Assembly: GCF_041248615.1 (NCBI RefSeq) | Contig: NZ_CP158426.1 | From: Escherichia coli | GTDB lineage: Bacteria > Pseudomonadota > Gammaproteobacteria > Enterobacterales > Enterobacteriaceae | Length of the DNA stretch: 64,000 nucleotides | Direction: 5' to 3' (one strand) | Shown here: positions 9,990-51,632 of the stretch, in pieces | How positions within the stretch are numbered: the stretch's first letter is position 1 | How the letters are laid out: every line of letters starts with the position of its first letter | Notes under the pieces: model-generated | Told to the model about the DNA's origin: nothing | The model's input: only the letters and a program-made list of their open reading frames with translations | Database searches by the model: none | Position numbers and translations under genes: made by a program

Positions 9990-10727
9990 ATGAGTTTTCA
10001 ATTTTGCAGGCGGAAGTTGTTCTTCCTCCTGGTGCTGGCCTTACCGGGCTACGCCGCCGTCCACCCCGTGCAACACAGCGCGCGGGAACAAGTCAACGCC
10101 CAGGTGCTGAATGCCGCGAGCCAGGAAATTGAATCGATGGCGCAGCAACGGCAGTGGCATGACTATCGCTACACCTTTAAGGTCTACATTCCCTCGCAGA
10201 TTGCGACCGCCGCCCCCTGTGCGACAACACCCGGCGTTACGCTCACTTCGCCTGCGGACATCGCCCTCAACCGGATGAACTTCACCGTCAGTTGCCCGCA
10301 AAGCTGGCAGATGAACGTGGCGGTGCGCCCGGATGTACTGGTGCCCGTGGTGATGACAAAGTCACTGGTTGCCCGCGATACGCCGCTCACGGCGAATGAT
10401 GTGGAGTTGAAGCCCTACAACTTCAGCGCCCAGCGGCGGGATGTGTTGATGGAGCTCGATGACGCAATTGGTTTAAGCAGTAAGCACGCGTTGCAACCGG
10501 GCAGGCCCATCACCAAAGAAGAGCTGGTTTCGCCAGTGCTGGTCGAACGCGATCAGCCGGTGATGATTGTTTACCAGAGCGCGGGGATCACCGCCTCGAT
10601 GCCCGGCGTGGCGCTGAAAAATGGCCGCAAAGGCGAGATGGTGAAAGTACGTAACGCAAGCAGCCAGCGGGTCATCAGCGCGATGGTGGCAGAAAGCGGC
10701 GTGGTGACGACGGTAAGCGCGGAGTAA
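9990..10727 (+). CDS. lfgA: Flagellar P-ring assembly chaperone FlgA-like
   Basis: 245 aa, signal peptide, divergent from flgB as in flagellar loci; moderate family resemblance. Confidence 0.75.
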   Translation: MSFQFCRRKLFFLLVLALPGYAAVHPVQHSAREQVNAQVLNAASQEIESMAQQRQWHDYRYTFKVYIPSQIATAAPCATTPGVTLTSPADIALNRMNFTVSCPQSWQMNVAVRPDVLVPVVMTKSLVARDTPLTANDVELKPYNFSAQRRDVLMELDDAIGLSSKHALQPGRPITKEELVSPVLVERDQPVMIVYQSAGITASMPGVALKNGRKGEMVKVRNASSQRVISAMVAESGVVTTVSAE

Positions 10728-10914
10728 TTTGCTGTAATACCGCGTAGCATATGTATGACTAGCTCCCAATATTCTGACTTTCTGACAAATTTCATTGTGT
10801 ATTTTGGATAATTATTGAGCACTCAATCACTACTGTTTAAATATCCAGATGATAACTATTTCATCTGGGTCAAATGAGTGATATTGTATCACCAATAAGA
10901 CCTACGGGGGTGCT

Positions 10915-12339
10915 ATGTCTGAATTTGAATTGCTCGTGAAAGATCTTCTTTTAAAATCAGAAGAAGACGAGAAAAAGCGACAAGAAAAAGATCGAGAATT
11001 AATTTCAAAGGTTCTTGAAATCTATGATCAAAAATATGTTGCAGAACTCCTACGAAAAGTAGGAAAAAATGAATGGAGCAGAGAAACACTTAACCGTTGG
11101 ATAAATGGTAAGTGTAACCCTAAACAATTAACTTCTGCTGAGGAAACTTTACTTCGAAAGATGCTCCCAGAACCTCCCGAACATCATCCTAACTATACAT
11201 TTCGTTTTATTGATTTATTCGCAGGGATTGGTGGTATTCGTAAAGGCTTCGAAAATATTGGTGGGCAGTGTGTTTTTACTAGCGAATGGAATAAAGAAGC
11301 GGTAAGAACCTACAAAGCTAATTGGTTTAATGATGAACTAAATCATAAATTTAATCTTGATATACGAGAAGTCACTTTAAGTGATAGAGATGATGTTTCC
11401 GAAATGGAAGCCTATAATCATATAGACAAAAATATTCCAGATCATGATGTCCTTCTGGCCGGTTTTCCATGTCAACCCTTTAGTCTGGCTGGGGTAAGCA
11501 AGAAAAATTCTCTGGGGCGTGCACATGGTTTTGAATGTGAGGCACAAGGAACACTATTTTTTGATGTCGCTCGAATTATTAAATCAAAAAAACCAGCTAT
11601 TTTTGTGCTTGAGAATGTGAAGAACCTTAAAAGTCATGATAAAGGTAAGACTTTTAAAGTCATCATGGAAACACTCAATGAATTAGGGTATGAAGTCGCC
11701 GATGCTGGTGTGACTGGCTCAGATGATCCTAAAATTATAGATGGAAAACATTTTTTACCCCAACATCGTGAGCGTATAGTGTTGGTAGGATTTCGTAGGG
11801 ATCTAAATATTCACAAGGATTTCACGTTACGAAATATTAACCGCTTTTACCCTCAAAACAGGCCAACATTTGGTGAATTATTAGATCATGATGTTGACGA
11901 CAAATATATTTTGACTCCAAGGTTATGGGAATATCTTTACAATTATGCAAAAAAACATGCAGCAAAAGGAAATGGATTTGGTTTTGGTTTAGTGGATCCT
12001 AAAAATCCAGATAGTATCGCACGAACGCTGTCTGCTCGTTACCATAAAGATGGCTCTGAAATACTGATCGATCGTGGCTGGGATAAGGCTGTCGGTGAAA
12101 TCGATTTTAGTAATCCAGCGAATCAAGAGAATCGACCAAGAAGACTGACACCTCATGAATGTGCCAGGTTAATGGGTTTTGAAAAACCAGGGGGAAGACC
12201 TTTTAGAATACCTGTATCAGATACTCAAGCTTATAGACAATTTGGGAACTCAGTTGTTGTGCCAGTATTTGAAGCTGTAGCAAGATTACTAGAACCGTAC
12301 ATACAAAAGGCTGTCAGCATGCAAGTTATTAACGATTAA
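10915..12339 (+). CDS. DNA cytosine-5 methyltransferase, Dcm/M.EcoRII family (predicted CCWGG specificity)
   Basis: 474 aa; motif I FAGIGG, motif IV PCQPFS, ENV, QFGNSV; near-collinear with M.EcoRII/Dcm as recalled; gene is AT-rich unlike flanks. Confidence 0.9.
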
Positions 12340-12362
12340 TAATAATTAACTTTCACTATTGT

Positions 12363-12386
12363 GAGGCCTTTTTTATTAAAGGCCTC
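12363..12386. terminator. Hairpin between convergent methyltransferase and endonuclease genes (candidate bidirectional terminator)
   Basis: gaggccttt-tttatt-aaaggcctc perfect 9-bp stem in AT-rich context. Confidence 0.4.
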
Positions 12387-12426
12387 TAAATATATAATCA
12401 TAAGTTATTATAAGTATACTTTTATA

Positions 12427-13632
12427 TTATACAAAATCTTCATACAGCGTTATTAACTGTGTGATAAAACCCTCTAACGTTAATAATCCCTCCCTGATTT
12501 CCTCCGGATATTTTTTATGAAGAGGGGAAGGTACAACCAAGGTGACACCTTCAGCTCTCATTTCGTTAAATTGAGCAACTGAGACACCCTCTTGTAAGGT
12601 AAACAAATATATTTTGTTGATTTTATTTGCTTCATTGAGTGCCTGACGCCACCGATCCTTACATGTTGTTTTTACAGCAAGCATACGGAGTTTTTCTCTT
12701 GGAAAGTGATCATCATGGTAAGCTGCCGCTGATGGAAAAAGAAAATCGGGTTTCTTTTTTCCTTCAGTAATACATTGAGTAGCAAAATGATGCAGTCCAT
12801 GCTCAATAAAAATTTGCTCAAGATGTAGCTCCAGTGATTTCCCGGCTCGAGATTTTCTTCGATTACTAACAGAGTTAGCCATAGCTATAAAATCATCTAC
12901 AGAACCAAACCCTTGACGGATGATGTCCAGTACGTGAATTTCTTCAACCATTAGAAAGAGATCATATTCAATACGGCGGCGTTCTAAAAGTTGGTCATCT
13001 GGACTGGTTACGCCTGTTGGGTAATAACCCGCAGCATATTGAATAATCTCTAAGCCAGAAGGAAAGCTATGTTTCCAGCTTTCCGGAATAACATATTCCT
13101 TTTGAGAGATTTTTGGCCTTGATGCGAGTACACCAAGTATTTCACTGGCAGGCCCAAACATTAAAGTTCCAGGAATGATCTCCCCAATAGCTGATTCCAG
13201 TACATCCTCTTCTTCTGGGCTAACACAAACCCATACATCAACACTTTTGCTGTCTCTCCCTGGCTCATGTTCAAACGCAAGCACAGACAAAGCACCTGTA
13301 TTTTCCGGATCCTGTAGGGGACTGCCAGCCCCCCACCGAGTGATGCGTTTTTCATTTCTTGTTTGCCCGAAATACTTATTATTGTAGTAAATAGCGCGAA
13401 CCTCACTGTCTACACATTCATGAGAGGAATAAGTTGCGCGCAATAAAACCGAAGGATTTTTTTCTGACGTATGATCTATAGATGGGAAAAGTTCAGCGAC
13501 GATACCAGAAGGGATATATACCCCCACTTGATGCCCTCCTGTTGCACCAGTGTCGTTTGCTGAAAGACGTTTAATATAGAGATAGTTGTTACCACCGACC
13601 TTATCAAGCAGCCAATCTTGTAATCCTGACAT
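12427..13632 (-). CDS. Type II restriction endonuclease, EcoRII-like
   Basis: 401 aa; N-terminal YIKRLSANDTGATGGHQVGVYIPSGI and overall layout match EcoRII as recalled; convergent with the MTase; AT-rich. Confidence 0.75.
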   Translation of the reverse strand: MSGLQDWLLDKVGGNNYLYIKRLSANDTGATGGHQVGVYIPSGIVAELFPSIDHTSEKNPSVLLRATYSSHECVDSEVRAIYYNNKYFGQTRNEKRITRWGAGSPLQDPENTGALSVLAFEHEPGRDSKSVDVWVCVSPEEEDVLESAIGEIIPGTLMFGPASEILGVLASRPKISQKEYVIPESWKHSFPSGLEIIQYAAGYYPTGVTSPDDQLLERRRIEYDLFLMVEEIHVLDIIRQGFGSVDDFIAMANSVSNRRKSRAGKSLELHLEQIFIEHGLHHFATQCITEGKKKPDFLFPSAAAYHDDHFPREKLRMLAVKTTCKDRWRQALNEANKINKIYLFTLQEGVSVAQFNEMRAEGVTLVVPSPLHKKYPEEIREGLLTLEGFITQLITLYEDFV

Positions 13633-41001: not shown

Positions 41002-42119
41002 TTACGAAAGCCCGCTCCCCGCAAGGACTGACGCCAGATAGTTTCTGTCCATGGCTGCTTTTCGCATCTTACGTCTTAACCCTGCCTTGAATACCTTATC
41101 ATTCGTCAAAATATTAATAGCGATGTGCCGTATCCCTGAAAATAATTCTGCTGCATTTCCTCTTCTTATTTTGCAGTCGTCTTCATTCATTACCACGTCC
41201 AGACGCCAGTGCAGCTTATTCTCCACGTGCCAGTGGTTTCGGATTGCTGTGGCGAACTTCTCTGCGGTTAAATCAGCAGAACTAATATAATATCTGACCG
41301 TCATTTCTGGCTCTTTCTTTTGTTCTGCTATTATTGACCGAAAGGAGACTGCCACGCATAATTTCTTCAGACCTTTCCATTCAAACGTGAAATCAATAAG
41401 TTCATCAGGGACATCGCAAACAATGTGAAGACGGATTTCTTCTCTGCCGTGACTCTTTTCACTCATTGCGTAACTGTCATGCTCTGGATTATTTAATTCT
41501 TTCAGCGGAAATTCTCGAAGGCTTTATTTAGCCGCCCCTGGTTTCCTTTTACAGCGAATAAATAATCACCTCCCTGTTTTTGTATCTTCTCTGCAATATC
41601 TTTCTGGCAACCCATCGCATCAGTTGTGATGATTTTTCCTTTAATATCCAGCATGTTAAGAAGTTCTGGGATAGCTGTAATTTCATTGGATTTCTCATCC
41701 GTCCTGATCTGTCCGATGACCAGACTGTGCATTGTTGAGAACGCACTAATGACATGAATCGCTCCCTTGCGGCGACTCTTGTCATAAGAATGCCGGAGTG
41801 TTTTTCCATCAATTGCGATGACGTCTTTATCATCTGAAGTATGGCAATCTCGCATCCAGTTAATAAAGCACTCGTGAAATTTTGCAGGACTGATACAGGA
41901 TACAACTCTGGCGATGGTATCGTGAACAGGAATACCATTTTCAAAATCACCGTATTGTTTTAAAAAATCGAGATGTGTTTCCCCAAAATCCTCTATATCT
42001 TCCCAACCTTCCGCACCCGAAATAACAGCACAAATAGTCAACAGTAGAATATCCGATAATTTATGTTCCACTTTCCAGGCTTGTCTGTAATCGGGGATAA
42101 TAGAAATATGCCCCATCAA
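41002..42119 (-). pseudogene. ISAs1-family (H-repeat-associated) transposase, frameshifted
   Basis: Two ORFs (41502-42119 and 41002-41466) cover N- and C-terminal parts; reading continues in another frame across 41466-41505 ([15 protein letters not shown]), showing a small deletion near KAFE|NF. Confidence 0.75.
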
Positions 42120-42306
42120 TTTTTTAAGTTCTATTTTGTTCTCCTTAATTATGTAAGGAGTATTTGATCATGTATAAGCAATAAAAAACAGCTTTAGGTA
42201 ATGAGGAATATCTCAATTTTTAAGCATAAAATGCGAATTGTTTAGTACAAAAAAGCAGCGTTACGTGATCTTTCCCTGCACTTCACCCTAACTTTAATTT
42301 AACTTC

Positions 42307-42346
42307 AAGAAGTATTAAGGCCTCAATAGCGAACTTAATACTTCTT
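42307..42346 (-). terminator. AT-rich hairpin downstream of Rhs immunity gene (weak terminator candidate)
   Basis: aagaagtattaag-N14-cttaatacttctt perfect 13-bp inverted repeat. Confidence 0.3.
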
Positions 42347-42354
42347 AAAGAATA

Positions 42355-42732
42355 TCACTCCTGACCAAAATCTTTCCACACTAATGCATGAGACTTTGAT
42401 TTATCACCCAAAAATTTACTTACATCTTTCCAAAGTAAAGAATTGCTATCGGTCGCAGTGACTATTGCCTCTATAAGCCCTGTAGCTACAACTGTGGCCA
42501 ATTCATCATCAATCGAGACCATACCATCTTCGACATGTTTAAATATTTTTTCTCTTTCAATATCACCCATTTCATAAAAATTTTTTACAATCGTTTTTCC
42601 AATCTGAGAGAACAACATAACCACCGGTGGAGTTTCTGGATGCCAGTATTCATTAGCTAATGAGACTGTCTCAGACAAAACAGTGGAAAACGATGCCATT
42701 TTTTCTATATAATTAGCAATATATTGGTTCAT
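42355..42732 (-). CDS. Putative immunity protein for the Rhs C-terminal toxin
   Basis: 125 aa AT-rich ORF immediately downstream of the rhs stop; family not recognised. Confidence 0.55.
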   Translation of the reverse strand: MNQYIANYIEKMASFSTVLSETVSLANEYWHPETPPVVMLFSQIGKTIVKNFYEMGDIEREKIFKHVEDGMVSIDDELATVVATGLIEAIVTATDSNSLLWKDVSKFLGDKSKSHALVWKDFGQE

Positions 42733-45700
42733 TACTTGCCTCCCAAAGCATTCTGTAAATCCTGAAGAACGTTTTCTGCTGCTGCTCGATCCCCTGGAGA
42801 TGCTGTTGGATTCTTATCCAACCAATCCTGTAAAGCCCTTGTATAATCCTGTGCTTTCAATACATGTCCTCTACCACCAACTTTTTCACCTGTGGCCAAT
42901 TCATAACGAACAGCATCTGCTGTGCTTCCACTTCCTACTTTTGCATTTGGCCGATAAAGATCGTCTATAATATTTTTCAAATTTGAATCTGTAACGTCAG
43001 GTTTTCCCATCTTCTGTCGCAATTCATCTTTATACCGTTCATGCTGCATACGATCTCTTGCGCTATTCTCATCTTCTGGTCCCCATCCTCCCGGGCTTCC
43101 CGTACTGCCACCACCCAGGCAGTTCTTCTCTTCCTCCGTCAAATCCTTCCCGACATTTGGATTCTCTTTTGATGAATCATCATTTCCAAACACGCTGGAA
43201 AAAGCACCATAGGGATCTCGCCAGAATTCCATTTGACTTTGTGCATTTAATAATTCGGCTTCACCCTGCATCTCCATACTTTTCTCAATCGCGTCCCCAA
43301 CAGCCTCGCGATTGTTGTATATTATTATACCACCACCAATAACCACCGTACCGACTGCCGCACCGACTAACATCCCCGGAGGGCCTCCTACCGAACCGAT
43401 CTCTGTACCTACTTCAGAACCAGTTCCCATGGCAGTTAATGCTCCTGCGCCCAACGCCGCACTTAATCCCAGCGGATCCAGCCGTTGCACCGGGTTCAGT
43501 GGATACGCATACAGGTTCCATCCCCCCTTCAGCCCAATCGGATCCTGGGTGATATACCTCCCCTGTAGCGGGTCATAGTACCGGTGACGGTTGTAGTACA
43601 GCCCCGACTCCTCATCATACTGCTGCCCCGGCAGACGGAGTGACTGTTGAAGGTGCTGCGTGCTTTCCTCTCCCAGCAGGTTTCCCCACTCGTCATACTC
43701 CCCGCGCCACGCCGTTTCCCCTTCCGGGCTGATAAGCGCCTGCGGCAGCCCACGGTGGTCACAGTGGTAAAGATGAAGTTTCCTCTCCGGGATGTATTCC
43801 GCCTCCAGTTGCGCCGCCATCTGTTCCGCCGTCAACCCACACTGTGCAAGCCACTGCTGGCTTTCTTCACTCACGCTGCCCTGCCGCAGTTCCCGCTCCA
43901 GCCTCCCCAGCATCACCGCCAGCTCCGCCGGTAGCGTCACACCCGTGTCCTCCTGCAACACCTCCGCCAGGCTACGGTGCCGCGCCTTCGCCTGTTCGCC
44001 ATTCTCTGTTTCGATTCTCAGGAGCGGCGTGAAGCTCCCCGGCTGGTATACCGTCTGGATACGCGTGGTGTCGGTCTGTACCGTCGTCAGCCTGTCGCCG
44101 TCCCACCCGTACCAGGTCACCTCCGGTTTACGCGACAGCGACATCCACCCCGTCAGGTCACGCTCCCGCCGCCACACCCGTTTTCCCGTCCGGCGGCCCA
44201 GCGGGTCATAGAGGTAGCGGCTCTCCACCTGTGGCTCGCCGTGCTGTATCCGCGTGTAGAACACCAGGCGGTGCTGGCTGTCGTAATGGTAGTGGTGCGT
44301 CCGCTCGTCGTGCATCCGTATCACCCCTTCCGGGATACGGTCCGTCTTCTCCGCCAGCCTGCCGTATTCATCGTAGCGGTAGACATAGTGCGCATCTTCC
44401 GTGATGCGGTTATCCGGCCACGCCGTGAAGGTGCTGTCCGGGTGCAGTTCCGGGTCCGGCAGCCGGTTTCCTGCCGGGTCCGTCGCATACGGGATATCAA
44501 TGTCCAGGTTCGCTGCCGTGGTGTGGACGCCCGTCAGCCTTCCCGTGTCGCTGTAACGGTACTCCCGGCTCTCCTGCGGGCCGCTGATGCGAATTAGCTG
44601 TCCGTTGTCGTTCCAGTCGTAGTCACGGTCAAGCTGCGGAAGGTTCAGGTGCCTGCTCCGGAGCTGGCCGCTGGTATTCCAGGCGGTGGCAAGCTCATAT
44701 GCCTCCCCGCCGAAGCTGCGGGCCGTCTCACGGTGCAGCCGGTCCCGCGTGTACTCGACCAGTGGCGTACCACCCAGCTTCATTCCCGCAAGATAACCGC
44801 TGCCATACGTCAGCCACTCCACCGGCGGCAGACCGTCCGGCTCCTGACGGGTCGCCAGCCCCTGTTCGCTGTACGCGTGCTTCGTCTCATGCTCCCACAG
44901 CATCTCCCCCGTCTCCGGGTTCTCCACCGTCTGCCGTTCGCCCGTCAGGCGGCCTTTATCGTCGTGGCCGTAGTGGACCGCCACACGGTGGCCTTCGCTG
45001 ATATGGCTGATTTCTGTCAGCCAGCCGTGCTCATCATACTGCCACTGCTCCGCCGGGTCGCCGTTCACCGTCCGGTGCGTGATGCGGTCCGACGCATCGT
45101 AATGCCAGAGGGTGATAAGCCCCTCATCTTCACTCTGCGTGAGTTTTCCGGTCAGGTCATAGTGGTAACGTTGCGTCCGCCCGTCAAAGCCGCGCTGCTC
45201 CGTCAGCCTGTCCACCGGGTCATACCGGAACGTGGACTGGCTGCCGTTCTCGTTGGTCAGCACGGTGGTGCGACCGGCGGCGTCATACCCCATGCTGCGC
45301 GTCAGTCCGCCTTCCGTCACACTCACCGGACGCCCGCGTTTATCATATTCGATGGTGCTGCGTTTACCGTCCGGTGATATCGTCGCTGTCAGGTCGCCTG
45401 CGGTGCTGTACTCATAACGGGTTTCACGCCCCTGCGCATCCTTCTGACTGACCAGTTGGCCACGCGGGTTATAACTGCTGTAAGTGCTGATGCCTTCTTC
45501 CCGGTGAACGGCGATTTGTTGACCGTACCGGTCATACTCATACCGCGTCGTGTACCCCGAGCAGTCCGTAAACGCCTGAAGCTGACCGTACCGGTTTCGC
45601 GTTATTCTCCGCATCACCCCGGTTCCGTCTTCCACCGCGCCGGGCAGGCTACTGCGGGGGGAGTCATAAAACCAGCGCGTAATGTTACCGTTGCGCGAGA

Positions 45701-47231
45701 TCTCTTCCGCCAGCCTGCCCTGACGGTCATATTTCCGGCTGCTGCGCAGCCCGTCCGGGTACGTCACTGACGTCAGTTGCAACTGGTTGTTGTAACCATA
45801 CCGTACCGTCCTGCCGTCCGGAAGTATCACTGAAGTCAGCTTTCCAGACGCCATATGCAGCCGATACTCCGTCCGCCGTCCCGCCGCATCCGTCTGCGCC
45901 TTCAGCCTCCCCGCCTCATCATACTCGCTGCGGGTGATGCTCCCGTCCGCATGTTCCTTCTTCACCACCCGCTTCAGGCCACCTTCGCCTTCCGTGTACA
46001 GCACCTCCCGCCTGTTCAGGCTGTCCGTGATGATTACCCGGCTCTCTCCGTACTCAAAGCGGTAGTCCAGCCCCTCCGGGTTGACCTGCTCCGTCACCCG
46101 GCCGGTATCATCATACCGGTAGCGGCTCTCCGGCCTCCCCGCATAATGGTGCGCCACCATCCGCCCGGCGTGCGCCACATCATAAGTAACCCCGCGCACC
46201 TGCGTCCCGCTGCGGTCATACACCGCCCGCAGTTCTCCGCTGGCCGTGTACGTGTAGCGCGCCAGCGGCGCAGTCGGCTGTTCATCCGGGTATGCCGGGT
46301 CGTGTGTCAGCCACACCGCCTCCAGCCGGATACCGTTATCGGCACCGTATTCTGTACCGACGGGCAGCGTATCGGGGAAAACCTGAGAAGAGGAAACAGA
46401 ACGGGGACCGGCAGGGGAAGATAAGGAAGACTCGCGCTGTTTACGGGACGCTTCCGCCCGCTGTGACTGTGTGGTCAGCGCCAGGTGAAAACAGCGGCCC
46501 GCGCCGTCCGTCACCCTGGTGATTTCACCAGCCAGTTCGCCTGCGGCCTCGCGGTGGAAAGTCAGTGAACGCCCGAAGCCGTCCACCACGCCCGTCAGCA
46601 CCCGGTATGCGGGTGGCTCCGGCGGCAACACCTCGTCCACCCCCGGCACCCGCTCCGGCCAGCCGAGTACCAGCCACTGCCCGGTTGTGCTGACAGCCAT
46701 CATATAGGTGTGTGGACTCAGGCGGACCGCTTCCGGCAACGCCCGCCAGAGCCGGGCCAGCGGGTGGCCTTTCTGCTGTTTCAGCACCCCGCCCCGCGCC
46801 AGCCAGAACGACTCGCTGCGGCTGTAGCTTATCTCGCCGGGAAACAGCGGCTCAAAGTGAATGCTCCTGCCGCCGCTGTCGTTGAGTATCAGGCCTTCAT
46901 CGCGTATCTGTAAGCGGATATCGAAGGGGGCTTTCCAGCCGGGACCAAACACCCCCACCGGCGCGGGCGTCCTGGTCCGGTAGCTGCTGTAGGCGCGGAA
47001 AAGAACAAACGGCAGCGGGCCGGACAGTGCCAGGTCGGTTTCAGCAGGCAGCACCTTCGCTCCCAGCAGCGGGTTTACCGGATTACCCTTCTGCTCCTCT
47101 ATCGGGCTGTTGGGACATACCGAACAGGCCACACCGGTTGGCGCACCTATCAGCACCCCTGCTGAACCCTGCACAATATCCAGTCCCTTGCGGGTCATGT
47201 CACCCTGCCGCGCCGCCGGTTTTCCACCCAT
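42732..47231 (-). CDS. rhs: PAAR-domain Rhs repeat protein with polymorphic C-terminal toxin domain (T6SS effector)
   Basis: 1499 aa; N-terminal [15 protein letters not shown] motif, YD repeats, DPxGL demarcation (RLDPLGL) then ~243-aa tip; tip (42735-43463) is markedly AT-rich relative to the core. Confidence 0.9.
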
Positions 47232-47306: not shown

Positions 47307-49448
47307 TCAAAATTGCCGCATATCCGGCATTCCGGGGGGTAAATCTTTCGGCACAGGCGCATCCGGTACAGGTTGTGTGGCACCACAGTTCCAGTTAATC
47401 ACCGGCGCATCACCGTTCACATCCGACTCTCCTTCCAGATGAATGTGCGTACCATTGAGAAATATGCTTCCGTCCTTCGTCAGCACCAACCTTGCCTTAC
47501 CGCAGCAGAGTTCCAGATGCTCACCGGCAGAATAAACTGCTGTTTGTCCGGTGTTTTCCTTCATCGTCTTGCCCACCGAGAAGGTGACGTTATTCCCTAC
47601 ATTGACGCTGTAGCCCATTCCCACCATCAGTGATTTATGCAGCCCTACCTGTGAGGACTGCAACAACGCCACCGAGGTATTCATGATGCCGCCTACCGTC
47701 GTCTGGTAAGCCACGCCCACCGTCAGCGCACGAATGATCCCCACCTTTTCAACCTGGTTTGAACCCACTTTGACAATCTGGTTGCTGCCTACCGTTTCCA
47801 CCTGGTTGACACCAACCGTCTGTATCTGATTAACGCCAATGTTCTGGATCTGGTTATTGGTAACGGTGATCGCCTGGTTGTTACCTATTTTTTCGGCATG
47901 GTTGTTTATCACATCCGTGGTGCGGTTATTCAGCACCTCGGTGTTCATGTTCTTCTGCGCGTGGATGTAGACCTGTTCTTTCCCTGTCGCATCGTCAAAC
48001 TTCAGTTCATTAAACCCGCTGCCCTTATAGGTTTTCGAACGAATGGTCATCTGCGTCTTTGTTCCCGGCAGGCTGCCGGGGGTGCGGTTTTCCTGGTGGT
48101 AGGTACGCCCCATAATAATCGGCTGGTCCGGATCGCCGTTGAGGAAGTCCACAATGACTTCCTGACCCACACGCGGTATCGCCAGGTTGCCAAAGCCGGT
48201 GCCTGCCCACGCCTGTGCCACACGGATCCAGCATGAACTGTCCTGGTTTGACGGGTTATAGCGGTCCCAGTTAAATTTCACCCGCACGCGGCCATGTTCA
48301 TCACAGAAGATTTCTTCTCCTGCCGGTCCCGTCACGACGGCGCTCTGCGGGCCGTCCACCAGCGGTTTCAGCAACGGCTGTGGCCGCCATGTTCTGTCTG
48401 CCGGTATTACCGCAAAGTGGTTATTCAGCGTGGTACCTGAACCCCTGCGTCCCGGCACCGCCTGCGGCTGCTCGCCGTGCAGTTCACTTGCCACCACCTG
48501 CCATTCCCGGTTCAGGTTCGCCTGCGGATGCCCCGTCAGCGCAATTCGCCGTCCCGGCCATATCTCCGGCGAACGGCTTGTTCCGCGCGCCACTTCTGCG
48601 TTGTTTCGCCAGCCATCCATCTGCCAGCAGGCAAAGTTCTGCCCGTGGGCACCCTTGAAACGTCCGGGGTAGTCATACACTTCATACTGTGTGCGCTGGT
48701 AATCCTGGTGCTGGCCTTCCTGATCAAAACGCCCTGCCCAGCCGGGTCGTTTAAAGGTGTAGTCTTTGGTCACCACGGAAGATGGGCGGATTTGTGCGCT
48801 GTAGAGGAACTGGCTGATGCATAGGGTGCTCACCTCGGTACGGGTGTTCGGATTCCAGGGGATCTCAAAGGACTCCGGCAGATAACGCACGGTGTCGCAC
48901 AGGACCAGGCTCTGGTCGGTACTTTTTTGCGCGTGCTCCTCATAAAAGAAGATGCCTTCCTCCGCCGCCATCCGGCACAGGAAATCGTAATCGGTTTCGC
49001 CGTACTGGACACAAAACTCACGGGAAGGATGCGGCTCGCTGAACAGCGGACTCCACTCGGTCACCCCGTTTTCTTTCAGGATCGTCGCGAGTATGCTTTC
49101 GATGTCCTCATTCTGGAAGATACGGAAGTTCTGGCGCAGCCCTGTGCGCCACAGCGGTGGGCACACCTTCATGCTGTACAGCATCTGGTTTTTGTCGTTC
49201 TCCCCCAGTTCAAACCAGGTCACCACACCTTTCACCCGGCGCTGTACGTCATCGCCCTGCCATACCGTCAGGTAGGCCATTTTGTCCAGCACCTGCGCAA
49301 ATTCAAGGGAGAGAAACTGCTGGCTGACCAGAGAGAGATCGAGGGAAAAGAGCGAAGAGAGTGACTGGTTCAGATGAAAGGAGACCACCGCAAACGCGTC
49401 CGGTGGCAGGCCGTCCACTTCCAGCGTGAAACGTAATCCGGTTGACAT
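47307..49448 (-). CDS. vgrG: T6SS spike protein VgrG (TssI)
   Basis: 713 aa; gp27/gp5-like VgrG pattern, position between hcp and PAAR-rhs; GGAGG RBS. Confidence 0.9.
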   Translation of the reverse strand: MSTGLRFTLEVDGLPPDAFAVVSFHLNQSLSSLFSLDLSLVSQQFLSLEFAQVLDKMAYLTVWQGDDVQRRVKGVVTWFELGENDKNQMLYSMKVCPPLWRTGLRQNFRIFQNEDIESILATILKENGVTEWSPLFSEPHPSREFCVQYGETDYDFLCRMAAEEGIFFYEEHAQKSTDQSLVLCDTVRYLPESFEIPWNPNTRTEVSTLCISQFLYSAQIRPSSVVTKDYTFKRPGWAGRFDQEGQHQDYQRTQYEVYDYPGRFKGAHGQNFACWQMDGWRNNAEVARGTSRSPEIWPGRRIALTGHPQANLNREWQVVASELHGEQPQAVPGRRGSGTTLNNHFAVIPADRTWRPQPLLKPLVDGPQSAVVTGPAGEEIFCDEHGRVRVKFNWDRYNPSNQDSSCWIRVAQAWAGTGFGNLAIPRVGQEVIVDFLNGDPDQPIIMGRTYHQENRTPGSLPGTKTQMTIRSKTYKGSGFNELKFDDATGKEQVYIHAQKNMNTEVLNNRTTDVINNHAEKIGNNQAITVTNNQIQNIGVNQIQTVGVNQVETVGSNQIVKVGSNQVEKVGIIRALTVGVAYQTTVGGIMNTSVALLQSSQVGLHKSLMVGMGYSVNVGNNVTFSVGKTMKENTGQTAVYSAGEHLELCCGKARLVLTKDGSIFLNGTHIHLEGESDVNGDAPVINWNCGATQPVPDAPVPKDLPPGMPDMRQF

Positions 49449-49607
49449 AGCAACCTCCGGGTTTAAGGAAAAACAGACAGTTCGCTGTTAAAGCGGCTGT
49501 AACAGTACAGTGTTACGCTTGCGTTCAGGCACGCTACCGCCGAAGTTTCCGGCATCCGCCATCTCCCGTGAACGTAACCCCTTACTGACAACCTTTCTTT
49601 TTACGGC

Positions 49608-49647
49608 GTAATACAAAAACAGCATCCGGCCTAATAGCCGGATGCTG
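49608..49647 (-). terminator. Rho-independent terminator/attenuator just downstream of hcp
   Basis: GC-rich hairpin cagcatccggc-ctaata-gccggatgctg followed on the minus strand by TTTTTGTATT, about 10 nt after the hcp stop. Confidence 0.6.
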
Positions 49648-49657
49648 TTGGCTTAAC

Positions 49658-50176
49658 TTATGCTTCCAGCGGTGCGCGCCAGTCGTCGGCACCGGAGGTG
49701 CCAGACTTGACGTGTTCCCACTCTATTTTGCGGTAGGCCAGTGAAACTTCGAGCAACTGGGTGAACTCGCGTTTCGCCGGATCCTGGCAATGCGGCATAT
49801 GCAGTTTCATATCGACAATCGTCGAATCGGTCAGGCGGGTGGTGAAATAATGCTCCTGTTTGCCTTCCACAGAGGTACGCCACCAGTGAAGTTCAGTGGT
49901 TGGCAGCATTTCGCCGGAGGCCAGTGCGTTGTACATCAGCGGAACAGCTTTGTTCAGCGCCACGGTAAAAATGAACGGCTTGTGAGCACGCTGACCCGCA
50001 GGCTGGCCGGACTGAGGATCGGTCGGGACAGTAACGTTATGCAGGAATTCCTGCACCAGCATCTCGTCTTCGTGCCCCTGCACATAGATGTTGCCGACAG
50101 AATCAGCGGTAAATGCACCTGCAGTAATATTTCCCTGGGTCTGACCAGTGATGGAGATATAACACGGTGTTGGCAT
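49658..50176 (-). CDS. hcp: T6SS tube protein Hcp (TssD)
   Basis: 172 aa; Hcp family pattern. Confidence 0.9.
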   Translation of the reverse strand: MPTPCYISITGQTQGNITAGAFTADSVGNIYVQGHEDEMLVQEFLHNVTVPTDPQSGQPAGQRAHKPFIFTVALNKAVPLMYNALASGEMLPTTELHWWRTSVEGKQEHYFTTRLTDSTIVDMKLHMPHCQDPAKREFTQLLEVSLAYRKIEWEHVKSGTSGADDWRAPLEA

Positions 50177-50474
50177 TTGTAAACTCCTTGTTAACGTGGT
50201 TAATTACTACTTACAATGACCTGCCGTTAATCCCAGACAGGCAGATGCAGCTCACTTCACGGAACCGCATCATTTTTCAGTATTTTTTACATACAAACCG
50301 AGCTAGAATTTACGGTTGTCGTAAAAACTATTTTTAAAATCATTAAATCTCTTATTCAGCAATAAGTTAATAATATATATCTGGATAACCATACCCAACT
50401 ATTCAAAGTCCGTATTGCCTCCATAAAATGGCCAAAGCTGAATCATGAATAAATATTGTATTTATCCTTTCTGA

Positions 50475-50491
50475 ATTATCATTTTGATAAT
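50475..50491. promoter_or_regulatory. Candidate Fur-like palindrome in T6SS divergent control region
   Basis: ATTATCATTTTGATAAT perfect palindrome containing GATAAT/ATTATC hexamers; spacing is non-canonical. Confidence 0.25.
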
Positions 50492-50872
50492 TTTTGAGAT
50501 ATTCCTTAAAAATACCCACTTAATCAATCACAAAACAAATATATAAACAAGCAATCATCAGATTAGCTTATGTTTAATGAAATTATTATATAATTCAATA
50601 AGTTACATAAAAACTCTATATTTAAATTATTGCCATAATACACCTGACGCGAATTTCGAAGGTTCACACAATCTATTTAACGCTTGCAGAATACCTCTCT
50701 TTACGATCGATAAAAAGTCCTTTTCTTATTTATTTTGAAGCGTAGAATGCGGGGTGATGAAGGAGTGGTGATTTTATTTTCACCGCCATTAGGGCGGCAT
50801 TGCCGATATTTTTTTGCGGTACAAATATGCCGTGTTCATGGCCTGTACGAGATAACATGACGGATCACTTTT

Positions 50873-51373
50873 ATGAGCAAAAAATTTGAAGGCAGCGTCG
50901 CGCCTCGCGAGCGTATAAATATATCCTATGTCCCGAAGACGGACGGCCAGACGGCTGAAGTGGAGCTTCCGCTTAACATGCTCGTTGTCGGCGATACCGG
51001 AAATACGCAGGAGACATCCCCACTGGATGAACGTCAGGCAGTTTCCGTTAACAAGCACAATTTCGGTGCGGTGATGGCTGAAGCAGCCATTGGCCTCAAT
51101 TTTACCGTCCCCGCCACGCTGAAGGGAAGCACAACGGACGATGAACTGAATGTGGCGCTGAATATCAAGTCACTGGATGATTTTTCACCGGACAGCGTGG
51201 CCCGGCAGGTTCCGGAAGTTAATAAATTGCTGGAATTGCGTGAAGCACTGACTGCGCTGAAGGGGCCGATGGGCAACCTTCCGGCATTCCGTACCCAGCT
51301 CCAGGCATTGCTGGAAAATGAGGAGTCCCGCGAGCAGTTGCTCAAAGAAATCGGCCAAGTGAGTGGGAAATAA
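50873..51373 (+). CDS. tssB: T6SS sheath small subunit TssB
   Basis: 166 aa; TssB/VipA family pattern; first gene after the AT-rich region. Confidence 0.9.
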   Translation: MSKKFEGSVAPRERINISYVPKTDGQTAEVELPLNMLVVGDTGNTQETSPLDERQAVSVNKHNFGAVMAEAAIGLNFTVPATLKGSTTDDELNVALNIKSLDDFSPDSVARQVPEVNKLLELREALTALKGPMGNLPAFRTQLQALLENEESREQLLKEIGQVSGK

Positions 51374-51407
51374 CCACCACTATTTCATTAAACAGGGTTA
51401 TCCAGAC

Positions 51408-51632
51408 ATGGCGGCACACAAAAATATCTCCGGGAAAAACCCCCTCTCTGACGAAGACATTTTGCAGGCGGTTTACCGGGTATGTTTCAGCCCGTCCGGT
51501 GAAATCAACCGGGATGGCGTGGATGCGCTGATTACAACACTGGATCGCCGTATCAGTGATCTATTGGATGAGATTATCCATTTTTGTGAGTTTCAGCAGA
51601 GCGCGTCGCACTGGCAGCGCGTACTTCACTGA
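51408..51632 (+). CDS. Short ORF resembling a diverged N-terminal segment of TssC (paralogous fragment)
   Basis: 74 aa from ATG 51408; VDALITTLDRRISDLLDEIIHFCEFQQSASHWQ aligns with VDSMIADIDERISRQMDVIIHAPAFQQVESFWR of the adjacent full-length TssC. Confidence 0.45.
   Translation: MAAHKNISGKNPLSDEDILQAVYRVCFSPSGEINRDGVDALITTLDRRISDLLDEIIHFCEFQQSASHWQRVLH

Follow-up and report, generated by a model that had tools for sequence, protein, structure and literature searches.

The window, that is the whole 64-kb stretch of Escherichia coli DNA analysed here, contains a type VI secretion system (T6SS) locus in which two divergent genes, hcp and tssB, are separated by a gap of exactly 696 bp (50177-50872). 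The hcp gene (tssD; 49658-50176, minus strand) matches the TIGR03344 profile (Hcp/TssD) with an E-value of 1.7e-61 and is the first gene of a leftward unit, hcp-vgrG-Rhs, with VgrG and an Rhs protein encoded downstream of it; in the annotation of the 100%-identical record NZ_LT599825 its product is named "Hcp family effector". The tssB gene (50873-51373, plus strand) matches TIGR03358 (TssB) with an E-value of 1.1e-50 and opens the rightward structural operon, with TssC, TssE and TssF encoded 3' of it. Profile matches in the window were obtained for Hcp, TssB, TssC, TssE and VgrG. The order in NZ_LT599825 is yafV/ivy, followed by Rhs-VgrG-Hcp and, divergently, TssB-TssC-TssE-F-G-TagH-TssJ-K-L-ClpV-VasI-TssA-TssM-VasL-Hcp, and APEC O1 shows the same organisation, placed between tRNA-Asp and yafV. 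The locus is the aspV-island cluster, which is named E. coli T6SS-2 in the literature.

The gap corresponds to 't6sP', the published AT-rich control and promoter region of E. coli T6SS-2: in the aspV-island cluster it separates the divergent hcp and tssB, and it can be aligned from end to end with the EDL933/Sakai region. Of 5426 complete E. coli genomes, 2235 carry it, each in one copy and at 95-100% identity. Against O157:H7 Sakai the identity is 96.8% over all 696 bp, and both palindromes and both GATC sites described below are unchanged. The t6sP of EHEC O157:H7 and Shigella sonnei (z0264-z0266 / ECs0233-ECs0234) shares locus, arrangement, palindromes and GATC sites with the window, from which it differs by allelic SNPs only: the window shows a -10 hexamer TAGAAT where most strains show TAAAAT, and the T-run at 50809 has seven T in the window and six in the t6sP alleles. 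Furthermore, the primers used for the S. sonnei reporters, TAACATGACGGATCACTTTT and CGTTAACAAGGAGTTTACAA, match both ends of the gap. An Rfam scan of 49400-51500 gave no match at E<=1. Three small open reading frames in the gap (38-56 amino acids) were rejected as genes: one carries a 4-bp insertion in Escherichia albertii, the frame of the second is shifted by the T-run indel at 50809, and the third sits in the segment richest in SNPs and indels.

The gap has a GC content of 0.328, compared with 0.542 for the whole window (67% AT overall and 77% in its core). Windows of 200 nt within it fall to 0.245-0.275, whereas the flanking genes show 0.50-0.57, and the lowest value among the 300-nt windows of all 64 kb (0.23, start 50329) lies inside the gap. 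TpA steps reach 10.3 per 100 nt in the gap versus 3.8, and 18 A/T tracts of at least four nucleotides are present. The H-NS high-affinity motif TCGATAAATT, allowing up to two mismatches, has four matches in the 0.7-kb gap and 59 in the other 63 kb, an enrichment that is no more than AT-richness alone predicts. A match to this motif in 8 of 10 positions is shown by each of two elements discussed below, namely TTGATAATTT, which forms the right arm of palindrome 50474-50492, and TCGATAAAAA, which overlaps a CGATCG site. An interpretation as H-NS-type sequence is thus equally open for the palindrome and the GATC site, both flagged earlier.

Published work on the same promoter agrees with silencing. 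EHEC T6SS-2 is nearly silent in vitro, and salt, pH, temperature and DMEM do not induce it; deletion of hns raised the z0264 transcript about 60-fold and complementation reversed the effect (Wan et al. 2017, PMC5363993). In that study z0264 is named 'hcp-2', and it was later equated with tssB (PMC13141884). H-NS binding between hcp3 and tssB is stated in the latter paper, which cites Wan 2017 and Kim 2022, names the bidirectional promoter t6sP and reports that its replacement by Ptac/ParaBAD increased the transcripts (Vazquez-Lopez et al. 2026, PMC13141884). Deletion of hns raised T6SS-2 mRNA, yet it was insufficient for full expression; DMEM or modified M9 further raised Hcp3, TssB and ClpV in the hns mutant only, and the authors concluded that an activating signal is needed beyond the removal of H-NS (PMC13141884). 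Their in-silico scan of t6sP predicted sites for ArgP, CysB, CytR, Fis, LeuO and NarL/NarP, and Fur is unmentioned (PMC13141884). The same gap was cloned from S. sonnei in both orientations, and the reporters were not induced by M9, temperature, glucose or polymyxin (Leung et al. 2024). Loss of hns likewise derepresses the B2 allele of T6SS-2 (Ma et al. 2018, PMC5874247). H-NS xenogeneic silencing of an AT-rich promoter region is also found in Salmonella SPI-6 and other T6SS loci, whose cluster and promoter sequences differ from those of T6SS-2.

Three claims of the sequence-only reading are borne out by these data: that a divergent control region of about 700 bp lies between hcp and tssB, that it is far more AT-rich than the flanking genes, and that this fits H-NS-type silencing, which is supported by the published hns derepression on a 96.8%-identical allele, where the transcripts of both divergent units rise, and on the B2 allele. 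The gap and its control by H-NS were already known, and our analysis adds no new biology to them. The extreme AT-richness would provide a platform for nucleation and spreading of H-NS filaments, which would cover both divergent promoters. Silencing would be only part of the mechanism, because deletion of hns is insufficient for full expression.

Two perfect palindromes lie close together in the gap. The one recorded in the sequence-only reading, ATTATCATTTTGATAAT, was confirmed at 50475-50491 and proved slightly longer, as it extends by one base on each side to a perfect 8+3+8 palindrome (palindrome 2, 'Fur-like'; 50474-50492, AATTATCA-TTT-TGATAATT) that contains two GATAAT hexamers placed tail to tail. 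Palindrome 1, absent from that reading, is a perfect 7+3+7 palindrome (ATAAATATTGTATTTAT, 50449-50465) located 9 bp to the left, with the two centres 26 bp apart, and it includes a -10-like TACAAT on the minus strand. Chance expectations were estimated with dinucleotide-preserving shuffles of the gap, with tests that were chosen after the sequence was seen: at least one palindrome with arms of 8 bp or longer and a spacer of up to 5 bp appeared in 13.5% of shuffles, a palindrome with 7-bp arms in 39%, two palindromes with arms of at least 7 bp within 40 bp in 1.9%, and two exact GATAAT hexamers in inverted orientation, separated by 0-6 bp, in 0.4%. The palindrome at 50474-50492 is moderately, not overwhelmingly, unusual. 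No convincing match of the palindromes or the conserved blocks to Sigma-54, IHF, FNR, CRP, PhoP, CpxR, RcsB, LexA or HipB sites was seen by eye.

Both palindromes are contained in a central block (50434-50506) with 87-90% identity between E. coli and E. albertii, whereas most of the central gap shows 40-70%; measured over 50447-50506, this is the best conserved central stretch. The palindrome at 50474-50492 is intact in seven of eight sampled E. coli alleles. In E. albertii its left arm is broken and a 4-bp insertion is present, while the palindrome at 50449-50465 is identical. Yokenella, C. youngae and the APEC O1 (B2) allele have the divergent arrangement of hcp and tssB but lack the GATAAT palindrome. 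Among complete E. coli genomes, the segment 50445-50504, which spans both palindromes, is exact in 1981 of 2153 matching genomes, compared with 139 of 691 for a control segment (50580-50639). The eight alleles have their SNPs clustered in 50577-50676 and 50777-50826, and 50177-50526 is nearly invariant; since the whole left half is poor in SNPs, the conservation is not specific to the palindromes. The search for TssB in genome contigs gave four loci, which limits the breadth of the phylogenetic footprinting.

A second conserved segment, at 50687-50749 on the plus strand, is found in all lineages and, judged by its conservation, is the strongest candidate for a core tssB promoter. E. coli, APEC O1, E. 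albertii, Yokenella and C. youngae all share the elements GAATACC..CTCTTT, A(A/T)AGTnCTT(T/C)T and GTA(G/A)AAT, the last of which would supply the -10 hexamer (TAGAAT/TAAAAT, 50743-50748). Its -35 region is poor, which would fit dependence on an activator. The segment 50690-50749 is exact in only 245 of 2223 matching complete genomes, because the window has two minority SNPs there; nearly all the others are 95-99% identical. A sigma-70 consensus scan of the gap was uninformative (five sites versus 4.3 in shuffles). Several start sites in the T6SS-2 promoter were reportedly mapped by Kim et al. in 2022. A NarL-type heptamer (TACCTCT) is also seen at 50692 in the conserved block, without a 7-2-7 partner.

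Judging by conservation, transcription from this promoter would produce a structured tssB leader of about 120 nt (50752-50872, plus strand), with its putative main hairpin at about 50785-50842. The predicted fold of the leader RNA has -40.2 kcal/mol (z=-2.93), and none of 200 shuffles was as stable. However, where alleles differ at paired positions, pairing mostly survives through G-U pairs or a change on one side only, covariation contributes negligibly, and the leader is not claimed as an RNA element in spite of its unusual thermodynamics. The palindromes would lie about 250-270 bp upstream of the -10 hexamer at 50743-50748, in the block conserved in Escherichia, and they would most likely be either an operator for a dimeric regulator, as a counter-silencer or a second-layer repressor, or part of distal promoters.

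The sequence-only reading had also pointed to control by iron through Fur and by Dam methylation, as described for enterobacterial T6SS promoters, while calling the spacing in the gap non-canonical. A Fur/Dam switch has been published for sci1 (T6SS-1) of EAEC and not for T6SS-2. The sci1 promoter is likewise AT-rich upstream of tssB (36% GC) and its Fur boxes are weak by consensus (11-13 of 19 positions), comparable to the palindrome of the window with 12 of 19; however, sci1 is a different T6SS cluster with a promoter that is not homologous to the gap (Brunet et al. 2011, PMC3145626). A blastn comparison of the gap with the sci1 promoter at word size 7 gave chance words only, the best of 19 nt at E=0.04. 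In sci1, three GATC sites lie within 53 bp and the fur1 box overlaps both the -10 and GATC-I, whereas the palindrome of the window is 214 bp from the nearer GATC.

The analysis of Fur sites was based on a symmetric 19-bp matrix, built from the best sites of 13 K-12 promoters (fepA-fes, fepD-entS, fepB-entC, fur, gpmA, tonB, sufA, cirA, ryhB, sodA, fecA, fecI and fhuF) that were footprinted, gel-shifted or predicted strong, with site coordinates from Chen et al. 2007 and the resulting consensus GATAATGATAATCATTATC. True Fur sites scored 9.4-22.4 bits (median 16) in leave-one-out tests. The palindrome at 50474-50492 scored 6.8 bits, below every one of them, and 88% of shuffled gaps reach this value; the best site in the gap (50329) scored 9.2 bits, reached by 53% of shuffles. 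When consensus positions were counted over the gap, the best stretch was 50448-50466 with 13 of 19, and 43% of shuffles reach at least 13. The matrix is unable to exclude a weak Fur site, because the validated fur1 box of sci1 (TATAATGATCAAAATTAAA; EAEC 042, coordinates from PMC3145626) scores only 7.1 bits with 13 of 19 consensus positions; fur1 is not separated from the background by score, and the case thus rests on geometry, position, comparative data and ChIP-exo.

With regard to geometry, the hexamers are everted (ATTATC-N5-GATAAT, with a 5-bp gap), a layout that is the reverse of 9-1-9, 7-1-7 and F-F-x-R; neither a 9-1-9 repeat nor at least three adjacent NATWAT hexamers, with a score in the footprinted range, was found in the palindrome. 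With regard to position, it lies about 250 bp from 50743-50748, the sole -10-like hexamer conserved in every lineage, and the promoters that the scan builds on the palindrome arms, taken as -35 hexamers, do not exceed chance. The list of Fur ChIP-exo peaks in Sakai, from iron-replete and iron-starved cells, has no entry from 193,075 to 288,115, a span that includes the gap (263,438-264,133), so that the nearest listed peak is about 24 kb or more away; furthermore, ECs0233 and ECs0234 are absent from the available part of the supplementary tables, Fur pan-regulon included (PMC10164565). In strain 042, the same study placed one Fur peak some 770 bp upstream of the tssB gene of sci1 and another inside that cluster (PMC10164565), which indicates that T6SS-linked Fur regions are detectable, if imprecisely; Fur binding has been shown for sci1 and none was detected at the T6SS-2 gap in Sakai. 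In APEC, T6SS-2 transcripts were unchanged by fur deletion or iron limitation, although that allele is without the palindrome, which makes the observation indirect (Ma et al. 2018, PMC5874247).

A Fur operator would mean that Fe-Fur binds the GATAAT palindrome, perhaps together with the hexamers at 50461-50466 and 50498-50503, and represses one or both of the divergent promoters under iron-replete conditions beneath H-NS. The rarity of the exact inverted GATAAT pair in shuffles (0.4%), the strong conservation of the block in E. coli and the example of fur1, which illustrates that weak-looking sites can be real, argue for it, and a second repressor masked by H-NS would give the effect of low-iron DMEM and modified M9 on Hcp3, TssB and ClpV that is confined to the hns mutant and not seen in the wild type (PMC13141884). 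Nevertheless, the score, the everted half-sites, the distance from the conserved -10, the broken left arm in E. albertii, the wild-type reporters and transcripts uninduced in M9 or DMEM, the indifference of APEC T6SS-2 to fur and iron and the Sakai ChIP-exo data all stand against this reading, which we regard as very unlikely. The proposal of iron control is therefore unsupported. The sequence-only reading had named a lack of Fur binding in vitro and of any iron or fur effect on tssB or hcp reporters as evidence against it, and published data, which come from strains with hns intact, go largely in this direction.

The case for Dam methylation starts from the two GATC sites of the gap. The CGATCG noted earlier at 50705-50710 is present, but its true position is 50704-50709, one base off; its GATC occupies 50705-50708 and it overlaps TCGATAAAAA within a feature at 50704-50716. 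The second GATC (50863-50866) occupies the positions 7-10 nt ahead of the ATG of tssB, within its ribosome-binding region ACGGATCAC. The shuffle mean for 696 bp is 1.8, so two sites represent no enrichment; the first lies 214 bp and the second 372 bp away from the palindrome at 50474-50492. GATC 50705, some 35 bp ahead of the conserved -10, is confined to this type of E. coli allele and kept in all eight that were sampled; E. albertii shows GTTC in its place, whereas ATAAAAAGT next to it is shared by every lineage. GATC 50863 is kept in E. coli and E. albertii and replaced by GGATTA or GGAACA in other lineages. Methylation of GATC 50705 could steer the binding of a regulator and produce ON/OFF heterogeneity as at sci1, for which its constancy and position in E. 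coli and an 8-mer (CGATCGAT) common to the gap and the sci1 promoter could be cited. This is extremely improbable: the number of sites is at chance level, neither overlaps a Fur-like site, whereas sci1 has one of its three clustered GATC inside fur1 next to the -10, the site is lost in E. albertii while its flanking bases stay, and the sequence shared with sci1 amounts to chance words only. The gap shows neither clustered GATC nor a GATC within a Fur box at the -10, as sci1 does, and Dam control as proposed in the sequence-only reading is left unsupported, with GATC at chance frequency and 214 bp away from the palindrome. The GATC sites are incidental, one overlapping the H-NS-like TCGATAAAAA and the other lying in the ribosome-binding region.

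The comparison with the APEC/ExPEC B2 allele (vipA2...hcp2A / hcp2B-vgrG2; Ma et al. 2018, PMC5874247) bears on what else the palindromes could be. This allele occupies the same site between tRNA-Asp and yafV, has the same divergent layout of hcp and tssB with an AT-rich gap of 705 bp (31% GC), and is repressed by H-NS and independent of Fur and iron (PMC5874247). It differs from the window in that no small open reading frame lies between tssB and tssC and in that the central gap is unalignable beyond the two ends and a 17-mer. Instead of the GATAAT palindrome, APEC O1 has a perfect 7-1-7 palindrome of its own, ATTCCTTAAAGGAAT, at the equivalent position; a 14-mer common to both alleles, AGATATTCCTTAAA, adjoins this position on its right. 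The position may be that of an operator with an allele-specific sequence.

Two further readings of the palindromes were weighed. It is quite conceivable, though short of probable, that they are chance palindromes or promoter-like AT-rich DNA coated by H-NS, without a specific ligand, in which TTGATA/ATGATA are divergent -35-like hexamers. The frequencies of single palindromes in shuffles (13.5 and 39%) agree with this, as do the resemblance of TTGATAATTT itself to the H-NS motif, the -35-like hexamers that the scan places on both arms, and the loss of the palindrome in four other lineages with the same gene arrangement; the rarity of the exact inverted pair and of twin palindromes (0.4 and 1.9%) and the strong invariance at the population level do not. 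Alternatively, the twin palindromes (7-3-7 and 8-3-8) may be a candidate operator at which a dimeric regulator counter-silences or represses T6SS-2, which we consider possible but less likely than not. The low frequency of two perfect palindromes within 40 bp, the identity of the block with E. albertii, its exact presence in 1981 of 2153 genomes, the palindrome of APEC O1 at the equivalent position and the published need for an activating signal beyond H-NS removal (PMC13141884) favour it. However, no known motif could be assigned to the palindromes, the scarcity of SNPs extends across 50177-50526, E. albertii keeps palindrome 1 and loses the left arm of palindrome 2, and the statistics were chosen after the sequence was seen. 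A more specific version, which we find rather unlikely, would make the 73-bp block 50434-50506 the operator of a dedicated regulator responsible for the missing activation or for second-layer repression, or, as a variant, an everted site that Fur could bind only after H-NS has been displaced.

Taken as a whole, the gap is very probably the bidirectional T6SS-2 promoter silenced by H-NS, with a palindrome that is no demonstrable Fur box and GATC sites that are incidental. No other type VI system is as widespread in E. coli as T6SS-2, which is present in EHEC, S. sonnei and many commensals. To our knowledge, no activating signal has been found for T6SS-2 and no laboratory condition has switched the system on; deletion of hns and promoter swapping each give only partial activation. 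The popular analogy with the Fur/Dam switch of sci1 should not be carried over to T6SS-2. As a practical pointer, 50687-50749, conserved in all lineages, is the probable core tssB promoter, and the invariant block 50434-50506 is the most rewarding target for mutation or for use as bait, within a gap that is the place where the activating signal of T6SS-2 must act.

The upstream block common to all lineages (50687-50749) contains a NarL/NarP-type heptamer, TACCTCT (50692-50698), roughly 50 bp upstream of the conserved -10 element. Most E. coli alleles show TACCCCT in this position; Yokenella and C. youngae retain the heptamer, whereas APEC O1 and E. albertii do not. NarL/NarP sites are likewise among the predictions of the 2026 paper on the bidirectional promoter of this system (PMC13141884).

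Folding of the presumed tssB 5' leader (50752-50872, plus strand) gave −40.2 kcal/mol with a z-score of −2.93, a fold much stronger than those of shuffled sequences. Of the 41 positions that carry SNPs in the E. coli alleles, eight lie in its main hairpin, the changes being mostly G-U or one-sided, and no convincing covariation was found. The hcp leader shows a short hairpin in the minus-strand RNA, CUGCC...GGCAG (50220-50245), which lies approximately 45-70 nt ahead of the start of hcp. APEC O1, Yokenella and C. youngae keep its stem with an altered sequence (CTGCCG...CGGCAG). Another hairpin, with an 11-bp stem (CAGCATCCGGC-CTAATA-GCCGGATGCTG; 49620-49647), is located in the hcp-vgrG gap (49449-49657) and begins, on the minus strand, 11 nt past the stop codon of hcp; it is the counterpart of the published "h3R" region I terminator/mRNA-stabilizing hairpin (PMC13141884).

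Between tssB and tssC there is a small ORF (51363-51632, or 51408-51632 in the annotation of NZ_LT599825, the record identical to the window, which labels it "hypothetical protein"). Its product shows a weak resemblance to the TssC N-terminus (TIGR03355, E = 4.9e-4), with residues 47-85 aligned to profile positions 44-82. This insert is missing from the APEC O1 allele, where 22 bp separate tssB from tssC. According to published work, tssB and tssC of EHEC are separate transcription units.

The window shows two further AT-rich stretches, 10693-12905 and 41837-42848, both with 300-nt GC minima of 0.30. The latter spans the 3' end of the minus-strand Rhs gene (42732-47231) and the sequence downstream of it, as would suit a variable toxin/immunity module.

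The diverged T6SS-2 gap of APEC O1 (phylogroup B2) contains a perfect 7-1-7 palindrome of its own, ATTCCTTAAAGGAAT (L016:38365-38383, minus strand), which overlaps a 14-mer, AGATATTCCTTAAA, also present at window positions 50497-50510, and lies at an equivalent distance from hcp. Across genera, Hcp protein identity with the window is 97-99% in Yokenella regensburgei (L004) and Citrobacter youngae (L005), whereas the neighbouring TssB reaches only 77-78% and the hcp-tssB gap is mostly unalignable. This is a striking change in divergence within a few hundred bases. In strain ET245 (NZ_CP100978), an IS1B near hcp and the gap splits the match to window positions 49877-51172 into two pieces; therefore, the control region is an insertion target in some isolates.
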